Below, one piece after another: positions 6,066 to 23,328 of a stretch of 64,000 bases of DNA. Below the pieces are notes generated by a model. The model did no database searches. It was not told where the DNA came from and was given only the letters and a program-made list of their open reading frames with translations. Numbering within the stretch: position 1 is the first letter of the stretch; every line of letters begins with the position of its first letter. The DNA comes from Thermoanaerobaculia bacterium (lineage in GTDB: Bacteria > Acidobacteriota > Thermoanaerobaculia > Multivoradales > Multivoraceae). Both the position numbers and the translations under genes were made by a program. The stretch covers positions 832,001-896,000 of the forward strand of contig OY761158.1 of assembly GCA_963664405.1 (NCBI GenBank). The letters run 5' to 3'.

Positions 6066-6882
6066 ACTAGTACTGCTTGGAGCGACCGTGCTAGCCCTCT
6101 TCTTCTCCGCCCGTCAGGCCCAAGCTCTAGCTCAACGTCAGCTGGAGTTCGTTACCGGCATCACCCATGAGCTGCACACGCCACTCGCCGCGATCGCATC
6201 TGCGGCCGAGAACCTCAGCGACGGCGTAGTCCGCGATCAGGATCAGATCCGCCGCTACGGCCGGATGCTCAAGGGGGAGAGCGGGAGGCTGAGAAACATG
6301 GTCGGGCAAGTGTTGGATCTAGCAAGCACCGCCCGCGCCCCGGAAAGCATGCAGCCACGAGCCCTGAATGTCGTGACGGTCCTAGAATCGGTCCTCGAAG
6401 AGCACGACTGGACCCTGAGCGAAGGCGCCTTCACGATTGAGAAGAACTTCGAGGAAGGCCTTCCTGCGGCTCTCGTCGACCCCGATGCGTTTCATCGTGC
6501 CCTGCACAACGTAGTCGGCAACGCCATAAAGTACGGCGGCAGGCGGGAGAAGTGGGTTGGCCTGAAAGTCGACCGCGAAGCGGCCGGTCGAGAGGGCCGG
6601 CTCTGCATACGGGTGCAGGATCGAGGGCCGGGGATCCCCCGCACCGAGCAGCGGCGAATCTTCGACCCCTTCTACCGCGGTACCGCCGTTGCAGCGGGCC
6701 ACATCCACGGCACCGGCCTCGGCCTGGCGGTCGCCCGCCGCCTCCTGGAGGCCAATGGGGGCAGCCTCGAGCTCGAGCTGAGCGAGCGCGGCAGGGGCTC
6801 GACTTTCGTTGTTCGAGTACCTCAGGCACCCGACACGGTCCCGCAAGAGGAGAAGATCGAAGATGAAGCATCCTCCGTCTGA
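6066..6882 (+). pseudogene. sensor histidine kinase, 3' part (HisKA + HATPase)
   Basis: THELHTPL H-box, NVVGNAIKY, DRGPGI, IFDPFYR, GTGLGL. Confidence 0.92.
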
Positions 6883-7588
6883 CCCCAAGGAGCCGCTAGC
6901 ACAGAGTCCGCGCCGCATCTTGGTGGTCGAGGACGAGGTCAGTCTGATTCTGACCCTCGGCGACAGGCTGCGGAGCGAGGGCTACGAAGTCGAGGCCGTC
7001 GAGGACGGAATCGAAGGCTGGGAACGGGCCCGTACCGGTGACTTCGATCTCATCCTGCTCGACGTCGCCTTGCCTGGGCGCAGCGGGCTCGACGTCTGCC
7101 GCGATCTGCGCCAGGAAGGCGTGGGAACTCCCATCTTGATGCTGACTGCACGGACACAGCTTACCGACAAGGTAGTCGGCCTCAAGATAGGAGCCGACGA
7201 CTACCTCACCAAGCCTTTCGACATGATCGAGCTGCTGGCGCGAGTCGAAGCCCTACTGAGACGCACGGGCCGGCCCCTGGGCGGACCCACGAGCTACGCC
7301 TTCGGCGACATCCGAATCGATACGCGCAGCGCCGAAGTCAAGAGAGGCGGAGAGACGGTGGAGATCTCGAGCCTGGAATTCAAGCTCCTCGCCTACATGG
7401 TCGAGAAACGTGGCGCCGTTCTCTCACGAGACGAGCTACTCGACAAGGTATGGGGCTACGACGCGACGCCGACGACACGAACCGTGGACGTGCACGTCGC
7501 CTCTCTGCGCCAGAAAATCGAGCCTACTCCCTCGCACCCGCGCTACATCCTCACCGTCCACGGCATGGGATACCGCTTCGCCGGCTAG
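6863..7588 (+). CDS. OmpR-family response regulator
   Basis: ILVVEDE, LLDVALPG, GADDYLTKPF, TRTVDVHV, TVHGMGYRF; start taken at ATG 6863. Confidence 0.93.
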   Translation: MKHPPSDPKEPLAQSPRRILVVEDEVSLILTLGDRLRSEGYEVEAVEDGIEGWERARTGDFDLILLDVALPGRSGLDVCRDLRQEGVGTPILMLTARTQLTDKVVGLKIGADDYLTKPFDMIELLARVEALLRRTGRPLGGPTSYAFGDIRIDTRSAEVKRGGETVEISSLEFKLLAYMVEKRGAVLSRDELLDKVWGYDATPTTRTVDVHVASLRQKIEPTPSHPRYILTVHGMGYRFAG

Positions 7589-7611
7589 CCGGCCGTCCAG
7601 GGCACCCCTCC

Positions 7612-8403
7612 TCAGAAGCCGGGGTCGTCGGCCCTGTTTTCTGGACTGACTACCGGCACGAACTCGGCGGCGACGAGGGCGCGAAGCTTGCGCCCGAGAT
7701 CTTTGCGGTCGTCGCTCACCGCAGTCTGATCCGAGAAACGTACTGTCGCCTCGAAACGGGATATGCCGATGAGCTGCCAACCGTGGGGGAAGAACGGGGC
7801 ATCACCCCACCAGCAGACTCCGAGATGGGCGGGAATCTCGCCCGCCGGGGTGCGGTAGCCAATCGCGGCGGCGTGAACCGGCTGCGTCTTGCTCACCGGA
7901 AAGGCCAGCAAGCTACTACGGAAGGGAGCGACCACATCCCCTTGTGTACTCGTGCCTTCGCCAAAGAGAACGATACCGAAACCACGGTCTAGCACGTCCG
8001 CGACCAGCGAGTTGACGCGCACGATATCACGGCGCAGCGCGCGGTCGATGAAGATTGTGCCGGCGGCACGGCACAACCAACCAAAAAAGGGCCAGCTCCG
8101 AATCTCGAGCTTGCCGATGAAGTAGGCCTCCACGCAGGAGCCCAGAACCAAAACATCGACGTAGCTGAGGTGGTTGGACACCAAGAAAAAGGGAGCAACC
8201 GGAGGCGTGCCCTCGACTGTCAGTCGCCCTCCCAGAACGCGCAGAGAGGCCCGGGCCCAGTGGCGAAATAGAAAGTTTCGCGCTCGCCTTCGCAGATCCG
8301 CGAACGGCTGCAACAAGACCTGAGCTATCACCATCAAGCTGAAGCTGATGACGTTTACAAACAACAGTAGGAGAAGCCGAAGGGGCTTTCGAAGCGAGCG
8401 CAC
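7612..8403 (-). CDS. lysophospholipid acyltransferase (PlsC/OlsA-like)
   Basis: NHLSYVD, TIFIDR, FGEGTST motifs; start uncertain (GTG 8403 chosen). Confidence 0.85.
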   Translation of the reverse strand: MRSLRKPLRLLLLLFVNVISFSLMVIAQVLLQPFADLRRRARNFLFRHWARASLRVLGGRLTVEGTPPVAPFFLVSNHLSYVDVLVLGSCVEAYFIGKLEIRSWPFFGWLCRAAGTIFIDRALRRDIVRVNSLVADVLDRGFGIVLFGEGTSTQGDVVAPFRSSLLAFPVSKTQPVHAAAIGYRTPAGEIPAHLGVCWWGDAPFFPHGWQLIGISRFEATVRFSDQTAVSDDRKDLGRKLRALVAAEFVPVVSPENRADDPGF

Positions 8404-8417
8404 GTCGTTGTGAGAGA

Positions 8418-9209
8418 TCAGTTGAAAAACAGTCGATAGGTTCGCGGGTCGAGAGACTCTGAATCTAGCATCACGAAGTAGTCGATGGTCTTGAACTCTC
8501 GGTCGATTGCCGGAGGAGCGCAGACCAACCCGCCGTAACGAAGATAGGTGGCGAAGAGTTGAGGAAGCTCGACCGAGGGCTGCGACTCGACGTCGACGGC
8601 CGCACACTCGCACGCAACGGCCGACCGAGGCTGCAGCGACAAATTCGGATGCAGCTTACCTTGCTCTCCAAGCTGACGGTAGAGCCGAAGACCCTTGCAA
8701 GGATCTTGGGAAGTGAGCGAGCAGCAGCCGAATAAGTAGCGCTTATCGAAAGCTTGAAGATACCTCGCCAGGCCCCTCCACAACAGAAACAGGACCTGTC
8801 GATTGCGGTGTTCCAACGCAATGCAAGCTCGGCCCACTTCGACCGCCTTGCAGAGCATCTCATCAGGGAGATCCTCGAGACCGAACTCACCCGCGGAATA
8901 GAAGGCGCCTACCTCCCCCGCCATCTCCAAGGTCTGCATACGGTAGGTGCCGATCACTGTCGACGTCGTCCGATCTTCCACCAGCAGGTGGTGGCAAACG
9001 TTGTCGAAACCGTCTTCATCACGCTCGGTCGCAAAAGAGGTATCCAGTCCCTCGCCCAGCTCCAAGTTGAAGACTCTGAAGCGAAGATGCTGGATCTCAT
9101 CCAGCTCGTCTCTGCTGCGTACGAAGCGCAACCGATAGCGCCCCTGCTCGAGTTCCACGCTCGGGGCTGGGAGCAAGGCGGAAACAGTCTGTCCTACGGC
9201 TTCGGTCAC
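8418..9209 (-). CDS. GNAT N-acyltransferase, OlsB-like (ornithine lipid)
   Basis: LRFRVFNLELGEG, DEDGFD.VCHHLLV, GTYRM, EVGRACI, YLFGCCS, TYLRYGG, PAIDREF. Confidence 0.85.
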   Translation of the reverse strand: MTEAVGQTVSALLPAPSVELEQGRYRLRFVRSRDELDEIQHLRFRVFNLELGEGLDTSFATERDEDGFDNVCHHLLVEDRTTSTVIGTYRMQTLEMAGEVGAFYSAGEFGLEDLPDEMLCKAVEVGRACIALEHRNRQVLFLLWRGLARYLQAFDKRYLFGCCSLTSQDPCKGLRLYRQLGEQGKLHPNLSLQPRSAVACECAAVDVESQPSVELPQLFATYLRYGGLVCAPPAIDREFKTIDYFVMLDSESLDPRTYRLFFN

Positions 9210-9227
9210 GACTATGCCTTCAGCGAG

Positions 9228-9992
9228 TCAATTCGGTTGCAAAGCGATGTGCTCAAGCTCCGCCTGGAAGATGCGTAGGTCCCCCTGGCGATGGATACGC
9301 CCGCGAAGACGTACCGGTTTCGCGACCCAATCTAGGATCTCTCGGCCCGGAGCCGCTCCTCGAGCATCTTGGAGGAGAAAAATGACGCTCTCACCATCGC
9401 TATTCTCGGCGATAAAGAGAGGCGGTATGCCGCCGCTGATGCAACGCACTGAACAAGAGCGATGGGGCTTGCCTCGGCCCGGCTTCATGACCCCGCTGTA
9501 GCATTTGCTGTCGAGGATTTCGCCCACTAGCTGATACACCCCAAGATCCTCTTCCAACGCGGCATCGACCCTCCCGGCACCCAGATCCATCAGTGAGCCG
9601 GGCTCGATCTCCAGAGTCGCAACCGCGTCACTATAAGCGAGGGCTCCGGCAAGTGACACCCTTCTGCCGTCGAGCCCGCCAACGACAGCCCCAGCGCCGT
9701 GCTTTCCAAAAGTACCGAGAAGAAACGAAGAATGAGCCGACGCCCCTTCGGCCGCAGCCCCGGGGCGATCCACGAGGAGGCGAGGGTAGGGCGCCTCGAG
9801 CAGCGTTCCCGTCCACTCGCGATACTCTCCGTATTCGAAAACAGCGGGAGCGAAAGCACTCTCTCGCGAGATCAAGAGCGAGGCAAGCGCGACGCCGCCG
9901 ACCACCAGACCGAGGGCACAGCGGCGCATCAACCGACCGATGCCTGGAGGCACGTCGAGATAGCCGACGAAGAACTCAGGCTCGGGCTTCAT
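9228..9992 (-). CDS. membrane-anchored hypothetical protein with Cys/His motif
   Basis: One TM; DSKC...HRSCSVRCISGGIPP. Confidence 0.75.
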   Translation of the reverse strand: MKPEPEFFVGYLDVPPGIGRLMRRCALGLVVGGVALASLLISRESAFAPAVFEYGEYREWTGTLLEAPYPRLLVDRPGAAAEGASAHSSFLLGTFGKHGAGAVVGGLDGRRVSLAGALAYSDAVATLEIEPGSLMDLGAGRVDAALEEDLGVYQLVGEILDSKCYSGVMKPGRGKPHRSCSVRCISGGIPPLFIAENSDGESVIFLLQDARGAAPGREILDWVAKPVRLRGRIHRQGDLRIFQAELEHIALQPN

Positions 9993-10005
9993 GGCCCCCC
10001 TCCGC

Positions 10006-11043
10006 TCATACGATCGCAGGCTCCACGTGAGTGCCGGCTGGATTGGGCTGAGGGTGGATCCAAACGCTGCCCTCCTTCACCTTGACCCGAAAGGTCGGAA
10101 TCTTCTCAGTGAAGGGCGGCGGTGAGGCGCCTGTCTCGGGAATGTACTGGTAGCCGTGCCACGGACAGGTCACGCAACCGTCAACGATCTTGCCCTCGCC
10201 GAGGGGACCATTCTGATGCTGGCAGACATTGGAGATTGCAGACAGCTTGCCGTCATAGCGAAAGAGCGCCACTCTCTCTCCGGCCAGGCAAAAGATGCGG
10301 GCTCTATCTTCCGGGACTTCCAGCGGGGTGCAGACCGCTACATACCCCTCCTCGTCGGCGGATGAGATCCCGACCGCACGGTCGCGCCGTCGTTCGCCCA
10401 GAGCTGCCACGAGATGGAGACCGAACACCCAGACCACTCCCAAACCCAGCACCCCCGCCAACACCGGATCGACCTCCATCTGAAGGACGCCGAGGGCTAC
10501 ATGTACTACGAGCAAGCTGTATGCGACATAGACCCCCATATGCAGGGCCTTCCACATCGGCGCGGTCAGGTTGGCGAGCCAGAAGTCGTGACTGGTGGCG
10601 GCCATCAGGAAGAGAATCGTGAGAGCCGCAAGCCCGAGCACCTGAAACGGGAATTGGGCCAGCGAGCCCCAGTCGCCATTGCTGGTGAGAACGCTGAGAA
10701 GGGGGTTGATGTCGCCAACAGCGTGGAACTGGACCATCGAGAAGAGGCCGTGGGCCAAGCCGACGAGAAACATGGTGACGCCGAGATGTCGGCGGTTGTA
10801 GAGCAGCGGGAGAAAACGCGGATCGAGCCGGCTCAGTGGGCCAATCGACAAGATGATGTGGAGGAGCAGGAAGGAGCAGGTGCCCAGAGCGCGGATGAGG
10901 GTCGTCTCGAGCGTCCCGTTAGGTCGCAGCAGAATGCTGAAAACCACAAAGGCGACGAGGTACACAAGCACTCCCCCGAGCAGCACTTGGTCATAGCGCT
11001 TCTTCCATGGGGTCCAGCCAACGCCCCTGTAGCTGACGCTCAT
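10006..11043 (-). CDS. ferric-reductase-like (MsrQ-type) membrane domain + C-terminal Rieske domain
   Basis: NRRHLGV...AH, ATSHDF, WKALH...VVH; CQHQ...CPWHG; start MSVSYRG at 11043. Confidence 0.88.
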   Translation of the reverse strand: MSVSYRGVGWTPWKKRYDQVLLGGVLVYLVAFVVFSILLRPNGTLETTLIRALGTCSFLLLHIILSIGPLSRLDPRFLPLLYNRRHLGVTMFLVGLAHGLFSMVQFHAVGDINPLLSVLTSNGDWGSLAQFPFQVLGLAALTILFLMAATSHDFWLANLTAPMWKALHMGVYVAYSLLVVHVALGVLQMEVDPVLAGVLGLGVVWVFGLHLVAALGERRRDRAVGISSADEEGYVAVCTPLEVPEDRARIFCLAGERVALFRYDGKLSAISNVCQHQNGPLGEGKIVDGCVTCPWHGYQYIPETGASPPPFTEKIPTFRVKVKEGSVWIHPQPNPAGTHVEPAIV

Positions 11044-11501
11044 CCAGCGCCTCCGTCGTCGGACAGCAGCTGGGCACGCCCGAGAACGAGACCATGGCCA
11101 AGGCTGAAAAGAAGAAGCTCGTCTCCAGGAGCGCAACCTCCAGGGAGCGCGAATCGGCGGCGCTCCCCCGGCCGGATGGCGCCGAGGGCCCAGGCGCCAG
11201 TCGGCAAAGACTCTCCCGTCGACGAGCGAGCACAATAGAGAAGCATCTCCGGCGAAACCAGGTCAGGAGAGACTTCGACCGTGACCACAGCCGCCGGCGT
11301 CTCCTCCCACCAGCCCACAACTCCCGATATTGACCAAGCCAGAGGACGGGCGGAGACCTGAGCAGGTGGCGTGAGAAGGCCATCGAGGTCGGCCGCCGGT
11401 ATCGGTGTCCTGGCCCCCAGAGCGAACCCATAGAGAACGGCGACTCCGCAGCCAAGCGTGGCCACCAAGACGCCATGAAGTCTGCGCAGGGGCCGGATCA
11501 C
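11040..11501 (-). CDS. hypothetical protein
   Basis: GTG start overlapping upstream stop; N-terminal TM; overlaps the next gene by 4 bp. Confidence 0.6.
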   Translation of the reverse strand: MIRPLRRLHGVLVATLGCGVAVLYGFALGARTPIPAADLDGLLTPPAQVSARPLAWSISGVVGWWEETPAAVVTVEVSPDLVSPEMLLYCARSSTGESLPTGAWALGAIRPGERRRFALPGGCAPGDELLLFSLGHGLVLGRAQLLSDDGGAG

Positions 11502-11749
11502 CGCCGCACCCGGCCGCGATGGGGGGTCCACTCGGCAGGAGGCCCCTGTCGCCGAATCCAGCGAGCCAGCATCAAGGGCCACAAAGCCACGACTCCTGGC
11601 ACGATGAGGAGCCGAAAGCCCCAGGTGCCTTCGACTGCGCTGGGGTCGATGCGCTTCACCCCACGGGCCACGAAAGGCACAGCGAAGAGAAGGCCGAGCG
11701 CCGAATAAATGCCGACGACCAGCACCAACAGCTCGGGCAAGGTCTTCAC
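11498..11749 (-). CDS. small two-TM membrane protein
   Basis: GVKRIDP...GFRLLIVPG.VALWP; first gene of a coupled operon. Confidence 0.7.
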   Translation of the reverse strand: MKTLPELLVLVVGIYSALGLLFAVPFVARGVKRIDPSAVEGTWGFRLLIVPGVVALWPLMLARWIRRQGPPAEWTPHRGRVRR

Positions 11750-11889
11750 AGAGATCCCAAGCTAGCACAGGCTCGTTGCTCTAGCCGGGAGGCCGTGCTA
11801 GCTTTCGTGTCTGCACAACCGGGACAATCGAAACACAACCGCGCGCGAGAACGCCGTCGACTCCCGGGGCTGCTAAGGGGGTAGGAACA

Positions 11890-13503
11890 ATGCGGAAACA
11901 GAACGTAGCTGTCTGGAGTGAGCTCCCGGATCGCGAGCCGGCACACGCCCTGGTGGAGAACGTCGACCTCGTGGTGGTCCGTTTCGACGACCAGGTCTCG
12001 GTGCTCTATGGGCGTTGCCTGCATCGCGGCGCTCTTCTCGCCGACGGCAGCATCGTCGGAGACGACCTCGTCTGCGGCGTCCACGGTTGGGACTTTCGAT
12101 ACGACACCGGGGTGAGCGCCTACAACCACCGAGAGGTGCTGAACAAGTTCAATGCCTGGGTCGAAGATGGAGCGGTGTGGGTGGATGCGGACGAGATCGC
12201 GGACTGGCAGCGCGAGAACCCGCAGGCCTACGAGCGCGACAGCTACCAGGGTAACTACGCCGACCTCCATGGAACTCCGCAGGAGCCACACACCGGAGTG
12301 ATCCGCGATCTGGCCAACGATGGTCTCTCCAAGGTCGGTCACCATGGGCCGGTTGCCGCGATGGGAGTGCCGCGCCAGGAGCTACCGTCATGGGATCAGA
12401 TTCAATTCGTTACCGGTCAGCTCGCCACCCTGCCCCAGCTCGACGACACCGAAGTCGGATCCGAGCTCGTGATCGGACCCGACGCCAAGAAGCCGCTGCG
12501 TCTGGAGCTCCCTATCTTCGTCTCGGATATGAGTTTTGGCGCCCTTTCGTTCGAAGCCAAGGTGGCGCTCTCCAAGGGCTCAGAGCTGGCCGGCACCGGC
12601 ATCTGCTCGGGAGAAGGCGGCATGCTGCCGGAAGAGCAGGAGGCCTGTAGTCGATACTTCTACGAGCTCGCATCCGCGCGCTTCGGCTACTCCATGGAGA
12701 AAGTGAAACGGGTCCAAGCCTTCCACTTCAAGGGTGGTCAGGGAGCCAAGACCGGCACCGGGGGCCATCTCCCGGGCGCGAAGGTCATAGGCAGGATCGC
12801 CGAAGTCCGCGGGCTCGAAGAGGGGCAATCGGCGGTCTCTCCTCCGCGCTTCCCCGACTGGGACCACGAAGACGACTTCCGCGCCTTCGCCGAAGAGGTG
12901 CGAGAGGCGACCGGCGGCATCCCGATCGGATTCAAACTGTCGGCGCAGCACATCGAAGACGACATCGACGCAGCGCTCCGCATCGGCGTCGACTACATCA
13001 TTCTCGACGGTCGTGGAGGCGGCACTGGCGCTGCCCCACTGCTCTTTCGCGACAACATCTCGGTGCCCACGCTCGCCGCCCTCGCTCGCGCCCGCCGCCA
13101 CCTCGACTGCCTGGGGCGGCGCGAGATCACTCTTATCGTTACCGGCGGCCTGCGAACACCCGCAGACTTCGCCAAAGCCATGGCTCTCGGAGCCGATGGA
13201 GTTGCAGTCTCCAACGCGGCTCTCCAGGCCATCGGTTGCCTCGGTATGCGTGCTTGTCACACCAATAACTGCCCGGTAGGCATCGCTACCCAGCAACCCC
13301 ATTTGCGGGCCCGCCTGCCGGTCGACGAAGCGGCTGAGCGACTGGCGCGTTTCTTTGGAGCTACAGTGGATCTGATGAAGGTTCTGGCTCGCGCCTGCGG
13401 CCACACGCATCTCAACCAGCTGCGCAGCCACGACCTGGTGACCTGGGACCGTGACGTGGCCTATCTCACCGGGGTGACCTACGCGGGAGCAACGCCACTA
13501 TGA
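11890..13503 (+). CDS. Rieske domain + glutamate-synthase-like FMN-binding domain
   Basis: CLHRG...CGVHGW; MSFGALS, SGEGG, GQGAKTGTGGHLP, DGRGGGTGAAP, CLGMRACHTNNCPVG (3Fe-4S). Confidence 0.9.
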   Translation: MRKQNVAVWSELPDREPAHALVENVDLVVVRFDDQVSVLYGRCLHRGALLADGSIVGDDLVCGVHGWDFRYDTGVSAYNHREVLNKFNAWVEDGAVWVDADEIADWQRENPQAYERDSYQGNYADLHGTPQEPHTGVIRDLANDGLSKVGHHGPVAAMGVPRQELPSWDQIQFVTGQLATLPQLDDTEVGSELVIGPDAKKPLRLELPIFVSDMSFGALSFEAKVALSKGSELAGTGICSGEGGMLPEEQEACSRYFYELASARFGYSMEKVKRVQAFHFKGGQGAKTGTGGHLPGAKVIGRIAEVRGLEEGQSAVSPPRFPDWDHEDDFRAFAEEVREATGGIPIGFKLSAQHIEDDIDAALRIGVDYIILDGRGGGTGAAPLLFRDNISVPTLAALARARRHLDCLGRREITLIVTGGLRTPADFAKAMALGADGVAVSNAALQAIGCLGMRACHTNNCPVGIATQQPHLRARLPVDEAAERLARFFGATVDLMKVLARACGHTHLNQLRSHDLVTWDRDVAYLTGVTYAGATPL

Positions 13504-13519
13504 GCAGCGGAGCACGATC

Positions 13520-15469
13520 ATGAGCAACACGACCGACGTCGTATGGCACCGCGTTCTCGCTCCCGACGAGCTTCCGGAGGGGCGCGTTCGCGCCGTCGAC
13601 GCCGCCGGCACCAGTCTGGCGATCACTCACTACGAAGGTACCTACTCGGCCCTCGCCAATGCCTGCCCGCACCAGGGCGGGCCCCTCGGCGAAGGCACTA
13701 TCGAGAACGGCTGGCTGCGCTGCCCGTGGCACGGATGGGACTTTCATCCCTGCACCGGGAAGCCCCCGGGCGGCTACGACGACGGAGTCGCGACCTGTCC
13801 GGTCGAGGCTCGGGACGACGGAATCTATGTCGGCCTCGATCCACAAGCGGCCGCTCACCAGCCGACCGTTTCCGATGTCATGGTGGAGACCATGGTCAAC
13901 TGGGGAGTGACCCACGTCTTCGGAATGGTTGGCCACTCCAACCTCGGCCTCGCCGACGCGATCCGGCGCCAAGAGGAAGCAGGCAAGCTAAAGTTCATCG
14001 GCATTCGTCACGAGGGGGCGGCCTCCTTCGCCGCCTCGGCCTACGCCAAGCTGACGGGGCGCCCGGCCGCCTGCTTTTCGATCGCCGGCCCCGGCGCGAC
14101 CAATCTGCTCACCGGGCTGTGGGACGCCAAGGTGGATCGTGCTCCGATCCTCGCTCTCACCGGACAGGTCGACACTCAGGTGCTCGGGCCCGGCGCCTTC
14201 CAGGAAGTCGATCTCTCGGCCGCCTTCTCGAGCGTCGCCGCATGGAGTCAGACCGTGCTCTCTACCAGTAAGCACGCCGAGCTCATGACCCTGGCCTTGA
14301 AGCACGCCACATTGCGCCGCGACGTCTCCCATCTGATCTTTCCCGACGAGGTCCAAACGCTCCCGTTAGAGGGGGCGTCCGCCTCCGGTCCGACCGGGCG
14401 AGTACCCAACCTCGAAGTCGCCCCGCCCGAGGAGTCTCTCGGGCAGGCGGTCGAGCTCTTGGAGAAGGCGCAGCGACCGCTGATCATCGTCGGCCACGGT
14501 GCTCGCTTCGAAATGGACGGCATCCTCGCTCTCGCCGAGCGCCTCCAATGCCCCGTCGTCACCACCTTCAAGGGCAAGGGAATGGTCTCAGACCATCATC
14601 CTCTGGGCTGCGGCGTCCTCGGCCGCTCCGGCACGCCAATCGCGAGCTGGTTCATGAACGAAGCGGACCTTCTATTGGTGCTTGGCGCCTCGTTCTCGAA
14701 CCACACCGGCATCACCGACAAGAAACCGACCATCCAGGTGGACTATGACCCGTTGGCGCTGGGTAAGTTCCATGCCGTGGATGTCCCGGTGCTTGGCGAG
14801 ATAGGCGTCACCTGTCGCCAGCTCTCCGATCGTCTGCCGGAAGGCCTCGCCGCGCTCGATCTACGCGACGAGATCGCCGAGCGCTGGGCTTTGTGGCGTG
14901 CCGAGAAGACGAAGCGGGAGGGTGAAGATCGGGGGCTGGGAGTCTCGTCGGCGAGTCTCTTCGCGGCGCTCAATCGTCAGCTGCCCGAAGACGCGGTCAT
15001 CGCCGTCGATGTCGGCAACAACACCTACTCCTTCGGGCGTTACTTCGAGTGTGCTCGTCAATCGGTGTTGATGTCGGGCTATCTCGGCTCCATCGGCTTC
15101 GGATTCCCGGCCGCCATGGGCGCCTGGGCCGCAGCGCCCGATCGCCCGATCGTCAGCATCTCGGGTGACGGCGGCTTTGGCCAGTACATGGCCGAGCTCA
15201 ACACCGCGGTCAAATACGAGATGAATCTGACCCACATCCTCTTGAACAACTCCCAGTTGGGAAAAATCTCGAAAGAGCAGCGCTCAGGCGCGTTCGAAGT
15301 CTGGCAGACCTCCCTGAGCAACCCCGACTTCTCTCGCTACGCCGAGAACTGCGGCGCCCTCGGCATCCGAGTCACCGACAAGGCCGAGCTCGACAGCGCT
15401 CTCGAGCGGGCTCTGGCCCACGAAGGCCCCGCCCTGGTCGAGATCATCACCGACGCCGAGCTCGTCTAG
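13520..15469 (+). CDS. Rieske domain + TPP-dependent pyruvate-oxidase/ALS-family enzyme
   Basis: CPHQGG...CPWHGW; RHEGAASF, GPGATN, GDGG...NN TPP motif. Confidence 0.9.
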   Translation: MSNTTDVVWHRVLAPDELPEGRVRAVDAAGTSLAITHYEGTYSALANACPHQGGPLGEGTIENGWLRCPWHGWDFHPCTGKPPGGYDDGVATCPVEARDDGIYVGLDPQAAAHQPTVSDVMVETMVNWGVTHVFGMVGHSNLGLADAIRRQEEAGKLKFIGIRHEGAASFAASAYAKLTGRPAACFSIAGPGATNLLTGLWDAKVDRAPILALTGQVDTQVLGPGAFQEVDLSAAFSSVAAWSQTVLSTSKHAELMTLALKHATLRRDVSHLIFPDEVQTLPLEGASASGPTGRVPNLEVAPPEESLGQAVELLEKAQRPLIIVGHGARFEMDGILALAERLQCPVVTTFKGKGMVSDHHPLGCGVLGRSGTPIASWFMNEADLLLVLGASFSNHTGITDKKPTIQVDYDPLALGKFHAVDVPVLGEIGVTCRQLSDRLPEGLAALDLRDEIAERWALWRAEKTKREGEDRGLGVSSASLFAALNRQLPEDAVIAVDVGNNTYSFGRYFECARQSVLMSGYLGSIGFGFPAAMGAWAAAPDRPIVSISGDGGFGQYMAELNTAVKYEMNLTHILLNNSQLGKISKEQRSGAFEVWQTSLSNPDFSRYAENCGALGIRVTDKAELDSALERALAHEGPALVEIITDAELV

Positions 15470-15473
15470 GCTC

Positions 15474-15575
15474 CAGAAATGATGGCTATCATTTCCTCCG
15501 CCTAGTTGTCTTTTGGCGCCGAGGACGGCGCACTTGGGCGTTGCTTCCTATTCGCTCACGGAAACGGCTCAGGAC
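15474..15575 (+). repeat. single REP-like unit with extended tail
   Basis: GAAATGATGGCTATCATTTC + GGCGCCGAGGACGGCGC + TTGCTTCCTATTCGCTC tail shared with the 31022 copy. Confidence 0.8.
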
Positions 15576-15960
15576 GAATACTCGGACACGGCTCCTAGCC
15601 TGGATTACTCATGAAGCTCCTACTACGGTGCCGCAGCTCGGCGGATTCGGCCGCCGCTCAGAAGTGGAAGACGACAGCGGCCTCTGGGCCGCTGACGGCC
15701 ACGTCATAAACGAAACGATCGGGCCGGCGACGGTCCAGGCACCGCGAAGGGGGCTGTGACGCGTACCCCTACGACCGGATCGACCCATTCCTTCTCGTCT
15801 TCGAAGCCGGCGCCTGCCGGGCCCGTGGTGGTGACGCGGGCATCGATCGAAAGTAACGCGCGCCGAAGAGCACCTCGACGGCGTCCGACACCCGGATTGC
15901 TAGACTCCGCAAGATTCTCCGACCTCAGAACAGTCCGAGCGACGCAACTCTGGAGACCCG

Positions 15961-17391
15961 ATGAAAGATCTCATGGCCATGACCCTCACCGCCGTGGTGC
16001 TTCTCGCCTCGAGCGCACACGCGCAGGAGAAGCCAAACATCGTCCTCGTTTTCATGGACAACTTCGGTTGGGGGGAGCCCGGCTTCAACGGCGGCGGGAT
16101 CATTCGCGGCGCGGCGACGCCACGGCTCGACCAGCTGGCCAGCGAGGGCCTGCGCTTGACCAACTTCAACGTCGAAGCCCAATGTACGCCGTCTCGCTCG
16201 GCAATCTTGACCGGCCGTTACGCGATCCGCAGCGGTAATGGAACCGCCCCCCTTGGCGACGGTGTGTACGGTCTGGTGCAGTGGGAGGTCACGATGGCAG
16301 AGATGCTCTCGGACGCCGGCTACAACACCGCTATGTTCGGGAAGTGGCACCTGGGACGCACCGAGGGCAGGTTCCCGACCGACCAGGGTTTCGATGAATG
16401 GTACGGAATCCAGAACTCCACCGACGAGTCGGCCTACCCCGCGCTCGAGGGATTCTCGGACAGCGGAGTGGCAGAGACCTTCGTCCTGGAAGCACGGAGG
16501 GGTGAAACGCCGCGGAGGGTGCGCCCGTGGAACTTGGAGTATCGCCCGCTCATCGATGGCGACCTGACCGACAAGGCGATCGACTTCATGCAGCGTCAGT
16601 CGAAGAGCGAGAAGCCTTTCTTCCTCTACCTTCCCTACACTGCGACCCACTACCCGACGCGCCCGCACCCGGACTTCGTAGGCACCACAGGCAATGGGAC
16701 CTGGGCGGATCTCCTGCACCAGATCGACACCTACAATGGGAGGTTACTGGATGAGATCGAGGACCTGGGTATCCGCGACAACACCCTCTTTATCTTCACG
16801 GCCGACAACGGGCCGGAGGCGCCGCCACCCGGAACTAACACACTGACAGTCGATACTCCCACCCCGGGATCGGCCGGACCTTGGCGCGGCACCCTGTTCA
16901 CCGGTTTCGAAGCCAGCCTGAGGGTTCCCTTCGCCATCCGCTGGCCTGGAAAGATCCCGCCTGGAGCCAGCAATGAAATCGTTCACGAGATGGATCTCTT
17001 CCCCACACTCGCGCGAATTGTGGGTGGAAAGGTGCCGGAGGACCGCATCATCGACGGGGTAGACCAGACCGATTTCTTCCTCGGCAAACAGCAGAAGTCC
17101 AACCGTGAGGGCGTTATTGTCTACATGGGCGACGAGATTTTTGGGGTCAAGTGGCGCAACTGGAAAGTGAACTTCAAAGAGCTCGACACGGTCTTCGGTG
17201 AGACCAAGGAGTACGGAATGCCGCGGGTCTACAACCTTCTCTCCGACCCGCGCGAAAGCGTGAACGTTCTCTTTCCTAATACCTGGGTGCCCAAGGCGGC
17301 TCTGGGGCAACTGGGAGAGCATGTGGCCTCGTTGAAGGAGTACCCACCCATCCCCACCGGCGCGCCGGACCCCTACGAGCCACCCAAGTGA
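15961..17391 (+). CDS. arylsulfatase (Cys-type formylglycine sulfatase)
   Basis: Signal peptide, KPNIV, CTPSRSAILTG, GKWHLG, DNG. Confidence 0.93.
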   Translation: MKDLMAMTLTAVVLLASSAHAQEKPNIVLVFMDNFGWGEPGFNGGGIIRGAATPRLDQLASEGLRLTNFNVEAQCTPSRSAILTGRYAIRSGNGTAPLGDGVYGLVQWEVTMAEMLSDAGYNTAMFGKWHLGRTEGRFPTDQGFDEWYGIQNSTDESAYPALEGFSDSGVAETFVLEARRGETPRRVRPWNLEYRPLIDGDLTDKAIDFMQRQSKSEKPFFLYLPYTATHYPTRPHPDFVGTTGNGTWADLLHQIDTYNGRLLDEIEDLGIRDNTLFIFTADNGPEAPPPGTNTLTVDTPTPGSAGPWRGTLFTGFEASLRVPFAIRWPGKIPPGASNEIVHEMDLFPTLARIVGGKVPEDRIIDGVDQTDFFLGKQQKSNREGVIVYMGDEIFGVKWRNWKVNFKELDTVFGETKEYGMPRVYNLLSDPRESVNVLFPNTWVPKAALGQLGEHVASLKEYPPIPTGAPDPYEPPK

Positions 17392-17421: not shown

Positions 17422-17696
17422 GTTCCGGATGCGCCGTCCTCGGCGCCATGTAATCAGAAGCGGAGGAAATGATAACCATCATTTCCGTAGATTCCGGATG
17501 CGCCATCCGCGGCGCCATGTAATCAGAACCGGAGGAAATGATAACCATCATTTCCGTAGGTTCCGGATGCGCCATCCGCGGCGCCATGTAATCAGAACCG
17601 GAGGAAATGATAACCATCATTTCCGTAGGTTCCGGATGCGCCGTCCTCGGCGCCATGTTATCTAGCCGCAGGAAATGATAGCGATCATTTCCGTAG
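17422..17696 (-). repeat. 4 x ~69-bp tandem REP-like units (reverse orientation)
   Basis: GCGCC(G/A)TCC(T/G)CGGCGCC and GGAAATGAT-AACC-ATCATTTCC repeated at 69-bp period between convergent genes. Confidence 0.9.
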
Positions 17697-19622
17697 GCTA
17701 GGGGTGTACCAGATGGGAGACGTGTAAGCGCGCTCCTGGTGGCTCATCGGCACCTCCTCCGGCATCTTGATACCGAAGAAGTTCGAGTCGTAGGCCTGCC
17801 AGGTGGGCGTCGGGATCTCCAGCACCCGAGCGTAGTAGACGGCGCGATGATCCGGATTGAAGTCCGGATCGGTCCAAGTCCCCCGCAGTTCGGCATCGCC
17901 GATATTGTTCAGGTAGCTGGCGTCGGCTTCGTCGACCGTGTTTCCGACCGGCTCCCGAGCGCGGCCGTCCGCGCCGATGGCGCGACCGTCGGCGACCGCG
18001 ACGTCGTAGACCCGCTCATGCCGCTCGCCGGAGCCGTCGACCCAGCCTTTGATGATCTGGACACGGTCAAGGTTGCCGGACCACGGGTCCTTGAGCGCCC
18101 CCACCATGAAGACAGGAGCCTTCTTGCCGGCAGGTGCTTCGCGCAGGTCGCCCCCCATGGGAACACCATCTCGGTAGCCGATCGCGACCGCATCGGGCCG
18201 GAACACGTCATCTTCGTCGTAGTCCCAACCGCCGAAGAAACGCACCGTGATGCGGGTACCGGTGGTCGCGTAGGTTTCCTTCTTCTGCATCGCTTCGAAG
18301 AGCGCCTCGCGGGTGTTCTCGCGAGCCCAGACCGCAGCGAGGCCGGAGGCGAGGGTCTCGTACGAATAGGTCGTCAACGCCTCGTCGCCAGCAAGAGACG
18401 CGATCACCACGTGCTCCCAGCGATCGGCAGACGGTTCCATCGTCGGCGTCTTGCTCCAGCTGTTCTCATCCCGGGTGGTGGCCAGCGAGGTGTGCGCGTC
18501 GGTCGACCCGACCATGCCGAACTTGTAAGGGTTGACGCCAAGCTTCTCCTCCTGTTGGAGACCAATCTGCAGCGCGGTGCGCGCGTATTCATACTGAAGC
18601 ATCCAGTCCTCTTTGGGCTTGGCGCCCGCAATGTCGCCCTTGTCCCAGGTGCCGTAATCGGCGAACTCGTCGTTAGGTGACAGGAAGGGATGCGCCTCGC
18701 CGTCGCCCTTCATCTGGGTGACCTCGTATAGCGGCTCCCAACGCATTCGCGTCTCGGCGTACGCCAGGTCGATGGGTTGCCCGTCCAGCCCTTCGAGCGG
18801 AAACATCTGACCATTGGAGACGTTGCCGTTGTGGGCGATGGCGAGAACGCTGCCGCCGGTCTTCTCCTCGTAGGCCGCAAGGTATTCCCACAGATCCTCC
18901 GGATCCGCCGAGTCAGCAGCGCTGAAGGGTAGGACCTGGCCCACCTTGTCGCCGCCGTCCTTGAAGATGACGACCCGATGCAGATTGCCCGGCTTTTCCG
19001 GTTTCGCGATCGATGTCCACTCGAATCCGATCAAGGCGGTGAATCGTCCGGGCTCGTTGTACTGCTCGGCGAAGGCGATCTCCCGATCCCAAACCGTGCG
19101 TGTCACCCTCGGATTGTTGATCGGGTCTACCCCCTTGAAAACGGCATCTGCGATCCACTTCTGGAATGCGCCGCGGCCGTCGCCGGCCTTCACCATGTCG
19201 TGGACCATGCGGCCCCAATCGTTCTTGAGAAGCTCGGAGTTCGACTCTGCGATCATCGGAGCGAGTCCGAGGTTCTCCGCGTGGTCTGCCACCACGAGAA
19301 AGTCCAGGGGGCGGATCAGACGGGCTCGCATTCCGGCGGCAGATAGGACTTCCTCGCCCCTGGCAAAGCGAAATGCCTCTTCAGGCCCCAGCGTGTTTCC
19401 CATCATGCCGGCATCGGTGGAATAGGACGTGTGAAGGTGGGTGTCGCCCCAGTAGACGCCCTCGGCCAAGTTGGCATCGCTGGCCGTCCTTTCGACATAG
19501 GGCGAATAAATCTTCGGTCGCTCGAGTATCTCGTCAGGATTGACGTCCTGCGCAAGCGCGTAGACCGTGGTGCCGAGGACTGCAACCCCGAAGATGGCTA
19601 AGACGCGTGTAATTCTTCTCAT
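17685..19622 (-). CDS. DUF3604 domain protein
   Basis: YWGDTHLHT, LDFLVVADH, NLHRVVIF, EVTQMKGDGEAHP, QERAYTSPIWY; start taken at ATG 19622. Confidence 0.88.
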   Translation of the reverse strand: MRRITRVLAIFGVAVLGTTVYALAQDVNPDEILERPKIYSPYVERTASDANLAEGVYWGDTHLHTSYSTDAGMMGNTLGPEEAFRFARGEEVLSAAGMRARLIRPLDFLVVADHAENLGLAPMIAESNSELLKNDWGRMVHDMVKAGDGRGAFQKWIADAVFKGVDPINNPRVTRTVWDREIAFAEQYNEPGRFTALIGFEWTSIAKPEKPGNLHRVVIFKDGGDKVGQVLPFSAADSADPEDLWEYLAAYEEKTGGSVLAIAHNGNVSNGQMFPLEGLDGQPIDLAYAETRMRWEPLYEVTQMKGDGEAHPFLSPNDEFADYGTWDKGDIAGAKPKEDWMLQYEYARTALQIGLQQEEKLGVNPYKFGMVGSTDAHTSLATTRDENSWSKTPTMEPSADRWEHVVIASLAGDEALTTYSYETLASGLAAVWARENTREALFEAMQKKETYATTGTRITVRFFGGWDYDEDDVFRPDAVAIGYRDGVPMGGDLREAPAGKKAPVFMVGALKDPWSGNLDRVQIIKGWVDGSGERHERVYDVAVADGRAIGADGRAREPVGNTVDEADASYLNNIGDAELRGTWTDPDFNPDHRAVYYARVLEIPTPTWQAYDSNFFGIKMPEEVPMSHQERAYTSPIWYTPSLRK

Positions 19623-19830
19623 CGCTATTCCTTGACCCCCTGATTGATCCGGCCCGGTGAAACCGCCTTCGTAGAGCCTGGCGAGACTAGCATTACGAGA
19701 GGGTACACAGAAGGCAGACCTCTTATCCATCATCGCTATAAGATGTACGCGAACGGCTGCCTCGAAGTACAAATCGGGACTGTTCTCGCTTGATCAAGCG
19801 AGCGCAGCTCTTAAGAAAAAGGAGGGCAAC

Positions 19831-21756: not shown

Positions 21757-22067
21757 TGGCAGAAGCGGCCTCCGACGGCGCGGAGGCTCTCGAGATCCTA
21801 CGCGCGGGCCAACGTTATTCCGCGATCCTCATGGACTGCCAGATGCCGATCATGGACGGCATCGAGGCCACCCGGGTCATCTGCGAAAGCGGTCTGAGCG
21901 ACGCGCCGATCATCGGCCTGACGGCATACGCCATGCTCGGTGATCGCGAACGATGTCTTGCTGCTGGCATGGTGGACTACACCTCCAAGCCAGTGCAGCT
22001 CGACACTCTGCGTCTGATTCTCGATCGTCATGCACCTCGCCACGGCACTGCCAACGCAGACCGGTAG
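21756..22067 (+). pseudogene. receiver-domain fragment of a hybrid kinase
   Basis: DGAEAL...ILMDCQMPIMDG...IIGLTAYAM...AGMVDYTSKP; lacks the N-terminal acidic motif. Confidence 0.7.
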
Positions 22068-23328
22068 AGTCCTCTCCCTGAACCAAACCGGAACTTATCT
22101 CGGCGCCTTTGCGGCTCTGGCAACGTTGACTGCGTCGTCGGCCATCGCACAGTACGAGGAGAAGCACCTCCCCGAGCTTGATGGCGGTGCGTGTCCGCCA
22201 ACTGCCAGCGTTGTTGAAGCGGACGCAGTGAGACTCTTTTCATACGGTGAGCGAGGTCTTCAATTCGACAGCCCGGGGGGCAATAACTCTCTCTGGTTTG
22301 GCGTGCGTCTACAGACGCGGTTTTCCGACGAAGAAGTAGAACAGGACTTGTTGCCTGGGGAGCCGACGGAAACAACTACTGAGACACACGTAAACCGCGG
22401 TCGCTTCAAATTGGGTGGACACCTGATGTCGCCAAAATTGACGGTCTACTCAGAATATGACTTCCCTTCAGATCGATTAATCGATTTGCGAGTGAGCTAT
22501 CAGTTCAATGAACGGTTCAATGTCAGGGTGGGCCAATGGAAGGCCGAGTTCAATCGAGAACGCGTGGACTCTTCCGGTGCTCAACAGTTCGCTGAGCGAT
22601 CGATAGCGACCCCCTGGTTTACTATCGACAGACAACAAGGGGTGGTGGCATCCGGCCGGTTTGCAAACGGCAGCTCCGTCGACTCCAGTTACTGGTTTGG
22701 CTGGCTTAGCGGTGCAGGGCGCGGAGGTTCAACCTCTGACGCTGAAGGTTTGTGGCTGGGGCGCTATCAGTGGAATTTCACCGGTGAATTGCTCGGATTT
22801 AGTCAAAGCGATATCGGTCGGCGAAAGAAGGGTGCCGGTTCCGTCGCCTTAGGCTTGGTTGACGGAAAAACTCAATACACCAGCTTTTCCAGCGCCGGCG
22901 GCGGTCAGCTCCCAGGATTCTCTGACGGCGATTCCGACAGGTATCGTCTTCGTCAGGTAGTTGTGGAGACCGCCTATCAGCGCAATGGTTTCTCCTGGCA
23001 GCAGGAGTGGCATTGGAAGAGCATTGATGATCGACAAACTGGAAGGGAACGGACGATAACCGGCGGCTACGCACAGGCAGGAGTATTCCTCTCCCGCATC
23101 TGGTCTTCGGCCCCAGAGCCCCTGGAATTTGCGTTGAGGGCCGCCACTGTTGATCCGGATTCAGCGATACAGAGGGACTCCGAGCATGAATACTCGCTCG
23201 TAGGCAACTGGTTTTTCAACGGCCACCGCAACAAGCTCACCGCAGATGTTTCCTATGTTGAAAAGAGGTTTGTTCCAGAGACCAATAGTCGAGTGCGTTA
23301 TCGGCTGCAGTGGGATGTCTCGTTTTGA
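22030..23328 (+). CDS. outer-membrane porin (OprO/OprP-like)
   Basis: RGRFKLGGH, VRVGQWK, NWFFNGHRNKL, C-terminal Phe; start uncertain. Confidence 0.75.
   Translation: MHLATALPTQTGRVLSLNQTGTYLGAFAALATLTASSAIAQYEEKHLPELDGGACPPTASVVEADAVRLFSYGERGLQFDSPGGNNSLWFGVRLQTRFSDEEVEQDLLPGEPTETTTETHVNRGRFKLGGHLMSPKLTVYSEYDFPSDRLIDLRVSYQFNERFNVRVGQWKAEFNRERVDSSGAQQFAERSIATPWFTIDRQQGVVASGRFANGSSVDSSYWFGWLSGAGRGGSTSDAEGLWLGRYQWNFTGELLGFSQSDIGRRKKGAGSVALGLVDGKTQYTSFSSAGGGQLPGFSDGDSDRYRLRQVVVETAYQRNGFSWQQEWHWKSIDDRQTGRERTITGGYAQAGVFLSRIWSSAPEPLEFALRAATVDPDSAIQRDSEHEYSLVGNWFFNGHRNKLTADVSYVEKRFVPETNSRVRYRLQWDVSF

Follow-up and report, generated by a model that had tools for sequence, protein, structure and literature searches.

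Three Rieske fusion proteins in a divergent locus of a Thermoanaerobaculia bacterium: two separable modules with a proposed role in electron transfer

Known glutamate synthase (GltS) chemistry runs in the reductive direction, and proteins consisting of the flavin mononucleotide (FMN) domain alone are represented by the archaeal GltB and by MgsC of N-methylglutamate synthase. PoxB of Escherichia coli, a pyruvate:ubiquinone oxidoreductase, binds to the membrane through its C-terminal alpha-peptide. MsrQ, which belongs with the bacterial ferric reductase domain (FRD)/NOX superfamily, is a membrane heme protein paired with the extracytoplasmic MsrP. Analysis of a stretch of 64,000 nucleotides from a Thermoanaerobaculia bacterium of the order Multivoradales (assembly GCA_963664405.1, contig OY761158.1, positions 832,001 to 896,000; here called the window) revealed proteins resembling GltS, PoxB, and MsrQ side by side at positions 9228 to 15469, each fused to a Rieske domain. 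This had been proposed in a sequence-only reading of the window and was confirmed by Pfam searches. The genes are arranged as two divergent modules. Module A, on the reverse strand, comprises p83, p153, the FRD-Rieske gene, and p254; module B, on the forward strand, comprises the genes for Rieske-GltS and Rieske-TPP, the latter a thiamine pyrophosphate (TPP) enzyme. We propose, with a probability of about 0.4, that the cytoplasmic Rieske domains serve as one-electron adaptors, with the TPP enzyme as the donor and the GltS-like enzyme and/or the FRD-p254 conduit as alternative acceptors.

Three Rieske fusions at one locus

The Rieske domain (PF00355) was assigned to residues 9 to 81 of the TPP protein (E = 9.5e-18), to residues 5 to 74 of the GltS-like protein (E = 1.4e-11), and to residues 299 to 370 of the long open reading frame (ORF) of the FRD protein (E = 5e-15). 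The scores across the three proteins were 64.3, 44.5, and 55.6 bits against a gathering cutoff of 20.3, and all reported Pfam domain matches of the three fusion proteins exceeded the gathering scores. The CxH...CxxH ligand boxes, which the sequence-only reading had described as intact, can be read in all three translations, and the ligands C274, H276, C293, and H296 of the FRD protein were invariant among 28 orthologues. The extra Cys pair is absent from both ligand boxes of the Rieske domains, and this absence is a mark of the low-potential Rieske class. The domains of the TPP and FRD proteins share 35% identity (E = 2e-21), and this likeness hints at a shared adaptor origin. A search of the whole 6.78-Mb genome with the FRD-Rieske protein as the query revealed seven Rieske-type places, three of which fall within 5.5 kb at this locus. 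The clustering of Rieske domains at the locus is not due to chance.

Inspection of the Rieske-GltS and Rieske-TPP sequences revealed no signal peptide, and both proteins begin directly with the Rieske domain. Since a signal peptide is absent, the Rieske domains of both soluble proteins are probably cytoplasmic. For the FRD protein, the positive-inside rule places the N terminus, the loops at residues 71 to 87 and 153 to 165, and the stretch after helix 6 in the cytoplasm. Its Rieske domain is likewise predicted to face the cytoplasm because of this rule and of the sequence GERRRDR that follows the last helix. A dual Sec/Tat route for Rieske proteins, as described in PMC5449189, was considered for the FRD protein and rejected, since its helices are even in number and the last of them is not preceded by a twin-arginine loop.

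The two operons are separated by a divergent intergenic spacer of 140 bp (positions 11750 to 11889). Rieske-GltS (537 amino acids; 11890 to 13503, forward strand) is followed after a gap of 16 bp by Rieske-TPP (649 amino acids; 13520 to 15469, forward strand). On the reverse strand, module A begins with p83 (11498 to 11749), which encodes a small membrane protein of 83 amino acids with two hydrophobic stretches, and continues with p153 (11040 to 11501), FRD-Rieske (345 amino acids; 10006 to 11043), and p254 (9228 to 9992). The GTG start codon of p153 overlaps the stop codon of p83 (GTGA), the ATG of FRD-Rieske overlaps the stop codon of p153 (ATGA), and 13 bp separate the end of FRD-Rieske from p254. 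These are the three coupled accessory genes that had been noticed earlier. Two of the ORFs used in that reading were over-extended: the ORF of 409 amino acids corresponds to the FRD-Rieske gene of 345 codons, and that of 242 amino acids to p153, with 153 amino acids, and the separate p83. The start of p153 is confirmed by the N terminus MIxPLRxxHR, which is conserved in 25 orthologues. A consensus promoter scan of the spacer found nothing, and a consensus scan of positions 7400 to 16000 for promoters and terminators gave hits that were not clearly above those of shuffled sequences. The G+C content of the window is ~62%.

Rieske-GltS consists of the N-terminal Rieske domain and a Glu_synthase FMN/3Fe-4S TIM-barrel domain (PF01645; E = 5.5e-90). 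Its alignment with the solved structures of GltS large subunits was confined to the FMN domain (residues ~855 to 1161), and a C-x5-C-x4-C stretch at residues ~457 to 468 aligned with the 3Fe-4S region of GltS. Pfam found only the Rieske and Glu_synthase domains in the 537 amino acids and neither an amidotransferase nor a GXGXG domain, in agreement with the earlier description of a GltS-like protein devoid of amidotransferase. Against the GOGAT model NF008730, the protein scored 133 bits, with a cutoff of 1047. Rieske-GltS thus shares PF01645 and the 3Fe-4S Cys stretch with the large subunit of NADPH- and ferredoxin-dependent GltS but lacks the amidotransferase, central, and GXGXG domains, and its Rieske domain stands where ferredoxin or the beta subunit would bring electrons to GltS. 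Orthologues of Rieske-GltS with 63 to 77% identity occur in many phyla.

Rieske-TPP carries the three TPP enzyme domains PF02776, PF00205, and PF02775 (TPP_enzyme_N, _M, and _C; E = 1e-33 to 4e-37) behind its Rieske domain. The TPP motif GDG...NN is readable in the protein. The best match in the Protein Data Bank (PDB) was PoxB (3EYA/3EY9; E = 2e-71), with residues 115 to 645 of the query aligned to residues 3 to 528 of PoxB. The alignment stops at residue 528 of the 572 residues of PoxB, and Rieske-TPP ends four residues later (~532). The C-terminal membrane peptide of PoxB is therefore missing. All equivalog scores remained far below the cutoffs (417 versus 742 bits for PRK08611 and 309 versus 792 bits for the ubiquinone-dependent PRK09124). 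The enzyme resembles PoxB and the pyruvate oxidase of Lactobacillus, which share the three TPP enzyme domains and were its best PDB and NCBIfam matches. Unlike PoxB, it has an N-terminal Rieske part of ~105 residues and no C-terminal tail.

A scan anchored on TPP-Rieske, with one genome per species, revealed at least 589 confirmed relatives, and gene neighborhoods were determined for the best 80 loci. The proteins encoded at these 80 loci are 64 to 75% identical to the window protein and come from Acidobacteriota, Gemmatimonadota, Poribacteria, Planctomycetota, Cyanobacteria, Myxococcota, Gammaproteobacteria, Nitrospirales, Solirubrobacterales, Chloroflexi, and others. Carriers of TPP-Rieske include the cultured strains Acaryochloris marina MBIC11017 and Engelhardtia mirabilis Pla133. 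Such identity across phyla points to unusually high conservation or to horizontal spread. GltS-Rieske adjoins TPP-Rieske at 30 of the 80 loci (24/56 when the count is limited to loci where each flank extends for 3 kb or more). In most cases both genes share one strand, with GltS-Rieske immediately upstream and tens of bases between the two. Module B is thus a tight pair in which GltS-Rieske is followed by TPP-Rieske. In an even sample of 151 Acidobacteriota genomes with at least 90% completeness, TPP-Rieske was found in 12, a GltS-like relative in 17, and FRD-Rieske in 10 genomes. The GltS-like gene was present in 11 of the 12 TPP-positive genomes versus 6 of the 139 TPP-negative ones (Fisher P = 9e-12, with shared ancestry ignored).

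Several variations around module B were observed (G and L numbers denote surveyed genomes and loci). In 4 of the 17 GltS-like relatives (G077, G112, G095, and G208), the match starts near residue 127 and does not include the Rieske part. In two acidobacterial families (G077, G112, G128, G164, and G188), the open frame around TPP-Rieske has 878 to 923 amino acids and is ~230 amino acids longer than in the window. Both may represent variant architectures. A class III aminotransferase and a PALP family enzyme are encoded directly upstream of TPP-Rieske at three Poribacteria loci (L049, L054, and L071). A protein family of ~300 amino acids without a Pfam assignment (family X, P0124) is encoded beside or between GltS-Rieske and TPP-Rieske at 15 of the 80 loci (L055, L056, L057, L059, L069, L074, L087, L091, L092, L098, L099, L101, L107, L110, and L114), and one member showed a weak DUF5996 match (E = 2.5e-4). 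Family X was rejected as part of the window locus, as a copy with 33% identity lies elsewhere in the genome (G000:C1:4728363-4729166) beside unrelated genes. At seven loci (L070, L090, L096, L097, L104, L124, and L126), the next gene after TPP-Rieske is of the FMN_red type (PF03358; E = 3.8e-7 for L090); these loci come from Cyanobacteria, Solirubrobacterales, and, in a single case, Gemmatimonadota. The encoded flavoprotein is a possible alternative redox partner of TPP-Rieske.

Module A and its facultative linkage to module B

FRD-Rieske is a membrane protein with six transmembrane (TM) helices, in which a ferric reductase/MsrQ-like di-heme b domain is followed by the C-terminal Rieske domain. 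The Ferric_reduct match (PF01794) had an E value of 1.2e-11 and a score of 45.2 bits versus a cutoff of 28. Comparison of 28 orthologues revealed six invariant His residues, at positions 86, 98, 107, 152, 168, and 181. Of these, the pairs 86/98 and 168/181 are spaced 12 and 13 residues apart on two helices, as assigned from the sequence, and this spacing fits the two-heme FRD pattern. Among the 61 genomes of the order Multivoradales, FRD-Rieske is present at full length in 45 and in partial form in 4.

The other three module A proteins, p83, p153, and p254, had no Pfam match at E values up to 10 and no NCBIfam match. More than 1467 homologues of p254 were found, all of them unnamed or "hypothetical." Alignment of 44 sequences revealed the invariant block GEIVDSKC...PG..K.H(R).C...C.SGG.PP, which includes C164, H177, C180, and C184, the Cys3-His motif. 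The AlphaFold2 model of p254 (pLDDT, 88.9) consists of a TM helix at residues 18 to 43, which forms an N-terminal anchor, followed by two OB-like beta-barrels. Comparison of this model with the PDB by Foldseek gave no match at E values of ≤0.001 (best E value, ≥4e-3). The structural matches obtained were generic OB folds only (best VIA-align Z score, 7.6), and the ESM Atlas contained only unnamed clusters plus one that was automatically labeled "DUF5666." The family consensus shows an "RR" just before the TM helix (LARxxRRxV, residues ~20 to 24), which is not invariant. This pair could belong to a twin-arginine signal anchor that remains uncleaved, as would be fitting for a periplasmic domain bearing a cofactor.

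The AlphaFold2 model of p153 (pLDDT, 86.2) comprises an N-terminal TM helix and a beta-sandwich domain. Its best structural matches resemble Cu,Zn superoxide dismutase, with a Z score of 8.9 and a root-mean-square deviation of 2.9 over 96 residues at 9% identity, values near the background of the tool. Conserved metal ligands were absent from the alignment of p153 orthologues. The gap between p83 and FRD-Rieske is bimodal, with at least 407 bp at 42 of 65 loci and at most 257 bp at the other 23, and a jackhmmer search started from the window's p153 retrieved 44 of 55 ORFs located in such gaps, the query included. These two results indicate that p153 is a frequent but dispensable member.

Apart from this variable member, module A is a near-invariant unit with the order p83-(p153)-FRD-Rieske-p254. 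The gene for p254 is present in 50 of the 61 order genomes, and in all 49 genomes that have both, FRD-Rieske and p254 are adjacent on one strand according to their coordinates. In relatives of the window, p83 and p254 flank FRD-Rieske at 20 of 20 loci, and p83 lies upstream of FRD-Rieske at all eight loci examined from other phyla. An unbiased scan of metagenome contigs anchored on p254 revealed FRD-Rieske upstream of p254 at 45 of the 46 loci with room for the FRD gene, and p83 upstream at all 32 loci with at least 2 kb of upstream sequence. In the chromosome of A. marina (at ~4.19 Mb; L128), module A with p83, a p153-like ORF, FRD-Rieske, and p254 is followed by an EamA transporter gene and flanked by genes for a cytochrome P450 and a 2-oxoglutarate-Fe(II) oxygenase; the 8 kb around it contain no OlsB-like gene.

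Modeling of FRD-Rieske together with p254 gave a complex score of 0.77 (0.76 to 0.78 in three runs), versus 0.21 for the best of three controls. Of 80 solved complexes, 58 attained this mark, as did 2 of 110 mismatched pairs; the calibration is only rough, since alignments made for the present analysis were used. The runs shared at least 93% of the contacts, and the pLDDT of the partner was at least 83. The lowest expected error was obtained for helix-helix contacts between FRD residues 24 to 63 and p254 residues 29 to 41; in the modeled interface, the p254 helix at residues 17 to 50 meets FRD residues 20 to 63. The interface list further places the p254 motif region (residues 169 to 187) and residues 95 to 98 beside the outer FRD loops (residues 105 to 134 and 185 to 198), and the p254 tail (residues 4 to 14) beside FRD residues 75 to 82 and residues 244 to 247 and 284 to 297 of the Rieske domain. 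The modeled interface fits the topology deduced from the sequence, and the model supports binding of p254 to FRD-Rieske on the outer face.

All three Rieske genes are linked in 9 of the 61 order genomes, that of the window included. The other arrangements in the order comprise GltS and TPP with no FRD nearby (G037 and G040), FRD and GltS with TPP located elsewhere or not found (G006, G042, G055, G057, and G060), and FRD and TPP without GltS (G049). In one well-sampled genus, FRD-Rieske was present in 22 of 22 genomes, TPP-Rieske in 15, and GltS-Rieske in 7, and the genes were linked in none. There, the unlinked GltS- and TPP-Rieske genes neighbor housekeeping or uptake genes of unrelated function (a TonB receptor, an M24 peptidase, ThiG, TsaD, and acyl coenzyme A dehydrogenases), and such neighbors are shared only inside this genus. 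GltS-Rieske was absent from 11 of the 34 TPP-positive order genomes, all 11 of which have FRD-Rieske; conversely, G040 has no FRD-Rieske but contains GltS-Rieske.

Beyond the order, TPP-Rieske has module A at a distance of no more than 10 kb at 8 of the 80 loci (L058, L066, L091, L103, L105, L109, L110, and L112), or at 7 of the 42 loci whose flanks each extend for 6 kb or more. The eight loci belong to Planctomycetota, Cyanobacteria, Myxococcota, Krumholzibacteriota, Gammaproteobacteria, and Thermoanaerobaculia, and their gene orders are colinear, divergent, or permuted; L109, from E. mirabilis Pla133, shows the colinear order GltS-TPP-p83-p153-FRD-p254. Viewed from p254, GltS or TPP genes were found at only 1 of 13 long metagenome loci. 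Among the sampled Acidobacteriota, FRD-Rieske occurred in 4 of the 12 TPP-positive genomes, or in 5 with a fragment at a contig end in G051, versus 6 of 139 TPP-negative ones; this enrichment has a P value of 0.004 (4/12) or 0.0005 (5/12) with ancestry ignored. TPP-Rieske was missing from 6 of the 10 FRD-positive genomes of this sample.

A further 15 TPP-positive genomes from outside the order were chosen by hand, five of them because they are assembled to chromosome level and ten because TPP-Rieske had neither partner next to it. FRD-Rieske was found in four of them, GltS-Rieske in nine, and neither in three. For G062 and G064, which have no FRD-Rieske, a GltS-Rieske gene elsewhere in the genome had been predicted beforehand and was found in both. 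The rule that a genome with TPP-Rieske always contains GltS-Rieske or FRD-Rieske held in the order genomes and in 12 of the 15 outside genomes; with G071, G072, and G073 as exceptions, it was rejected.

These results indicate that the linkage between modules A and B is real and recurrent but facultative, and that two separable, widespread modules are present rather than one fixed pathway. The sequence-only reading had described the locus as a self-contained electron-transfer chain and had named missing linkage of the two operons in other genomes as the finding that would speak against it. The neighborhood survey bore out one part of this view, as both operons recur together beyond chance (in eight further order genomes and at 8 of 80 loci elsewhere). 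An obligatory chain did not survive the survey, since the operons are unlinked in most of the genomes covered. The most frequent neighbor of module A is not module B but a gene that the sequence-only reading does not mention, an OlsB-like aminolipid gene, which follows or faces p254 at 12 of the 20 loci of relatives and at 24 of 49 metagenome loci. An OlsA-like gene was found at 8 of the 20 relatives' loci, and a hydrolase-VTT gene at 11 of them, usually straight after the acyltransferase gene.

Possible routes of electron flow

According to the reading in which the Rieske domains are electron adaptors, the PoxB-like enzyme, loaded with TPP and probably with flavin adenine dinucleotide, would oxidatively decarboxylate a 2-oxo acid, most likely pyruvate, and would release the electrons singly through its N-terminal Rieske domain. 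Passage through this domain is proposed because the membrane-binding tail of PoxB has been lost. As one acceptor, the GltS-like enzyme would be wired from its Rieske domain through the 3Fe-4S cluster to FMN and would carry out the reductive amination of a 2-oxo acid with free ammonia. As the other, module A would form a transmembrane conduit that leads from the cytoplasmic Rieske domain through two b hemes to the periplasm-facing p254. Helices 3 and 5 would hold the hemes by their His pairs, the Cys3-His site of p254 would be placed above the heme domain's outer loops, and the conduit would export electrons to the envelope. Genomes would combine the two acceptors as needed. The domains, ligands, gene coupling, co-occurrence, and modular linkage are observed, and binding of FRD-Rieske to p254 is supported by a model; we infer the cofactor loading, the substrates, the direction of flow, and the transfer from one Rieske domain to another. 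The donor role is favored by the finding that TPP-Rieske often occurs with only one of the two partners, GltS-Rieske or FRD-Rieske, by the successful prediction for G062 and G064, and by the missing C-terminal peptide of PoxB.

Several points weigh against this scheme. Three of the 15 outside TPP-positive genomes (G071, G072, and G073) have neither acceptor, and an FMN_red-type gene adjoins the TPP gene in G071 and G072, so that other partners exist. Module A occurs far more often alone or beside OlsB-like genes than beside module B, and its neighbors suggest that its main job may be unrelated to module B. Shared ancestry is left out of account in the co-occurrence tests, with the positive genomes falling into about six families, and the genomes probed outside the order were chosen rather than sampled. 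For the GltS-like enzyme, an oxidative direction of flow is just as conceivable. The Cys3-His site of p254 could represent a structural zinc site or disulfides, and the FRD-p254 complex is a prediction.

The next most probable explanation assumes no direct transfer between the two modules. Module B would then be a closed cytoplasmic couple or two separate enzymes, and module A would serve the envelope, e.g., by reducing a periplasmic or lipid-linked target tied to aminolipid synthesis; the adjacency of both would result from co-regulation or joint horizontal transfer. The frequency of the OlsB-like gene beside p254 (24/49 metagenome loci and 12/20 loci of relatives), often with the OlsA-like and hydrolase-VTT genes next to it, is in line with this explanation, as are the single case among 13 long p254-anchored loci in which module B adjoins module A, the absence of TPP-Rieske from 6 of 10 FRD-positive Acidobacteriota, and the 64 to 75% identity of TPP-Rieske across phyla, which fits mobility. 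However, the adjacency of A and B recurs across at least five other phyla in different gene orders, while gene order is normally lost without selection. In addition, FRD-Rieske is enriched among TPP-positive genomes, and its Rieske domain needs a cytoplasmic donor, for which module A holds no reductase gene. We regard functional independence of the modules as rather unlikely.

A linear chain of the kind put forward in the sequence-only reading would make donors of both soluble enzymes: the GltS-like enzyme would oxidatively deaminate an amine or amino acid, and the 2-oxo acid formed would be oxidatively decarboxylated by the TPP enzyme. All four electrons would travel via the Rieske domains to FRD-Rieske and from there to the membrane or periplasm. 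The placement of GltS before TPP at a distance of tens of bases agrees with consecutive steps, all Rieske domains are predicted to be cytoplasmic, and linkage of the three genes was seen in 9 of 61 order genomes and at 8 of 80 loci elsewhere. The genomes that carry GltS-Rieske and TPP-Rieske without FRD-Rieske (8 of the 15 outside genomes, plus G040 in the order) speak against it, because in those genomes the two donors would have no dedicated acceptor. FRD-Rieske is also missing from 8 of the 12 TPP-positive Acidobacteriota, and the known chemistry of GltS runs the other way. Such a chain is possible but unlikely, and it is harder to square with these genomes than is the scheme in which the TPP enzyme feeds alternative acceptors. 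That the Rieske domains are devoid of a cluster or act in regulation or oligomerization instead of carrying electrons, as in some NirD-type folds, is very improbable, for although NirD-type models match the domains weakly, each of the three proteins has the full set of four ligands, these ligands are invariant in 28 FRD orthologues, and the domains are highly identical across phyla.

Neighboring genes and comparison with known systems

Downstream of module A, 18 bp after p254, lies the gene for the OlsB-like N-acyltransferase of the GNAT type (PF13444; positions 8418 to 9209, reverse strand). It is followed by the gene for the OlsA-like O-acyltransferase (PF01553; listed ORF, 7612 to 8613, reverse strand), whose listed start is probably too far upstream, as it overlaps the OlsB-like gene. 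The last gene of the conserved aminolipid-type block encodes an alpha/beta-hydrolase with a VTT/DedA-like membrane domain and leaves the window (3 to 1283, reverse strand). A hydrolase-VTT gene is also present at L066, L105, L110, and L112, and the OlsB/OlsA/hydrolase block is carried by four of the eight loci outside the order at which modules A and B are linked. In the window, a DDE transposase gene (PF13701; 4372 to 5856, forward strand) and a gene pair for a histidine kinase and an OmpR-type response regulator (6088 to 7588, forward strand) sit between the OlsA-like and hydrolase-VTT genes. This stretch looks like an insertion, since the OlsA-like and hydrolase-VTT genes are contiguous in relatives.

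Like the OlsB and OlsA proteins of ornithine lipid synthesis, the two acyltransferases belong to PF13444 and PF01553, and OlsB and OlsA were their best NCBIfam matches. In contrast to those proteins, they score about one-third of the equivalog cutoffs, with 124.5 versus 350 bits for OlsB and 122.7 versus 300 bits for OlsA, where the match starts at residue 73 to 85. A term search of a 2026 review on aminolipids (PMC12971839) found none of "Rieske," "ferric reductase," and "DedA," and no mention of a linkage to an FRD-Rieske module. The OlsB-like linkage offers a possible redox lead for aminolipid research. On the other side, downstream of Rieske-TPP, the window encodes a sulfatase (15961 to 17391, forward strand), two divergent DUF3604 proteins (17685 to 19772, reverse strand, and 19831 to 21756, forward strand; Pfam E values of 1e-232 and 2e-243), and a homologue of the phosphate-selective porin O/P (22030 to 23328, forward strand). 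The aminolipid-type genes together with the sulfatase, the DUF3604 pair, and porin O/P might, speculatively, form a phosphate limitation neighborhood.

Each of the catalytic domain families at the locus is known, and no characterized member was found for the three Rieske fusions or for p83, p153, and p254. Literature searches of main texts found no characterized Rieske-TPP, Rieske-GltS, or p254-type protein, and the statement of the sequence-only reading that it knew of no characterized pathway with this architecture agrees with these searches, in which none was found. The fusions are not rare, with at least 589 relatives of TPP-Rieske and more than 1467 homologues of p254, and there is a moderate chance that a new electron distribution logic is hidden here. 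If the Rieske domains are docking adaptors, they would explain how a PoxB-type enzyme works without membrane contact, and they would represent a new way of feeding a glutamate synthase-type flavoenzyme and a new class of partner for the MsrQ/NOX superfamily. A more specific "Rieske plug-and-socket" version, in which a PoxB-type oxidase with a Rieske plug in place of its lipid-binding tail feeds electrons from pyruvate to a glutaminase-less, ammonia-dependent GOGAT or to the FRD-p254 conduit, is quite unlikely in our estimate. Were it true, GOGAT enzymes would gain a third kind that runs on pyruvate instead of NADPH or ferredoxin. It would also mean that a NOX/MsrQ-like conduit, with a new Cys3-His tandem-OB metalloprotein as its outer cap, brings reducing power to the envelope, possibly for aminolipid-related chemistry.

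The best family matches of the three Rieske domains were NirD and the Rieske-type ferredoxins HcaC, AndAb, and CarAc of ring-hydroxylating oxygenase systems. Unlike these proteins, the domains described here occur as fusions with dehydrogenase-type enzymes and with a heme membrane protein, and, unlike oxygenase systems, the cluster contains neither an oxygenase nor a dedicated reductase. A Rieske-containing architecture, "M4," is listed in the FRD survey of Zhang et al. (2013; PMC3591440). FRD-Rieske shares with MsrQ and the bacterial FRD/NOX superfamily the six-helix FRD with conserved His pairs and, by prediction, the pairing of a membrane heme protein with an extracytoplasmic partner, as in MsrQ/MsrP. 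Its score against the MsrQ equivalog model NF003831 was 32 bits versus a cutoff of 130, and no MsrP-type molybdoenzyme is encoded beside it or among the conserved neighbors in 20 relatives. Instead, the partner is a Pfam-less tandem-OB protein with a Cys3-His motif, accompanied by two small membrane proteins. In MsrQ and NOX, electrons enter from quinol or through a flavin/NADPH domain, whereas in FRD-Rieske the entry on the cytoplasmic side would be the fused Rieske domain.

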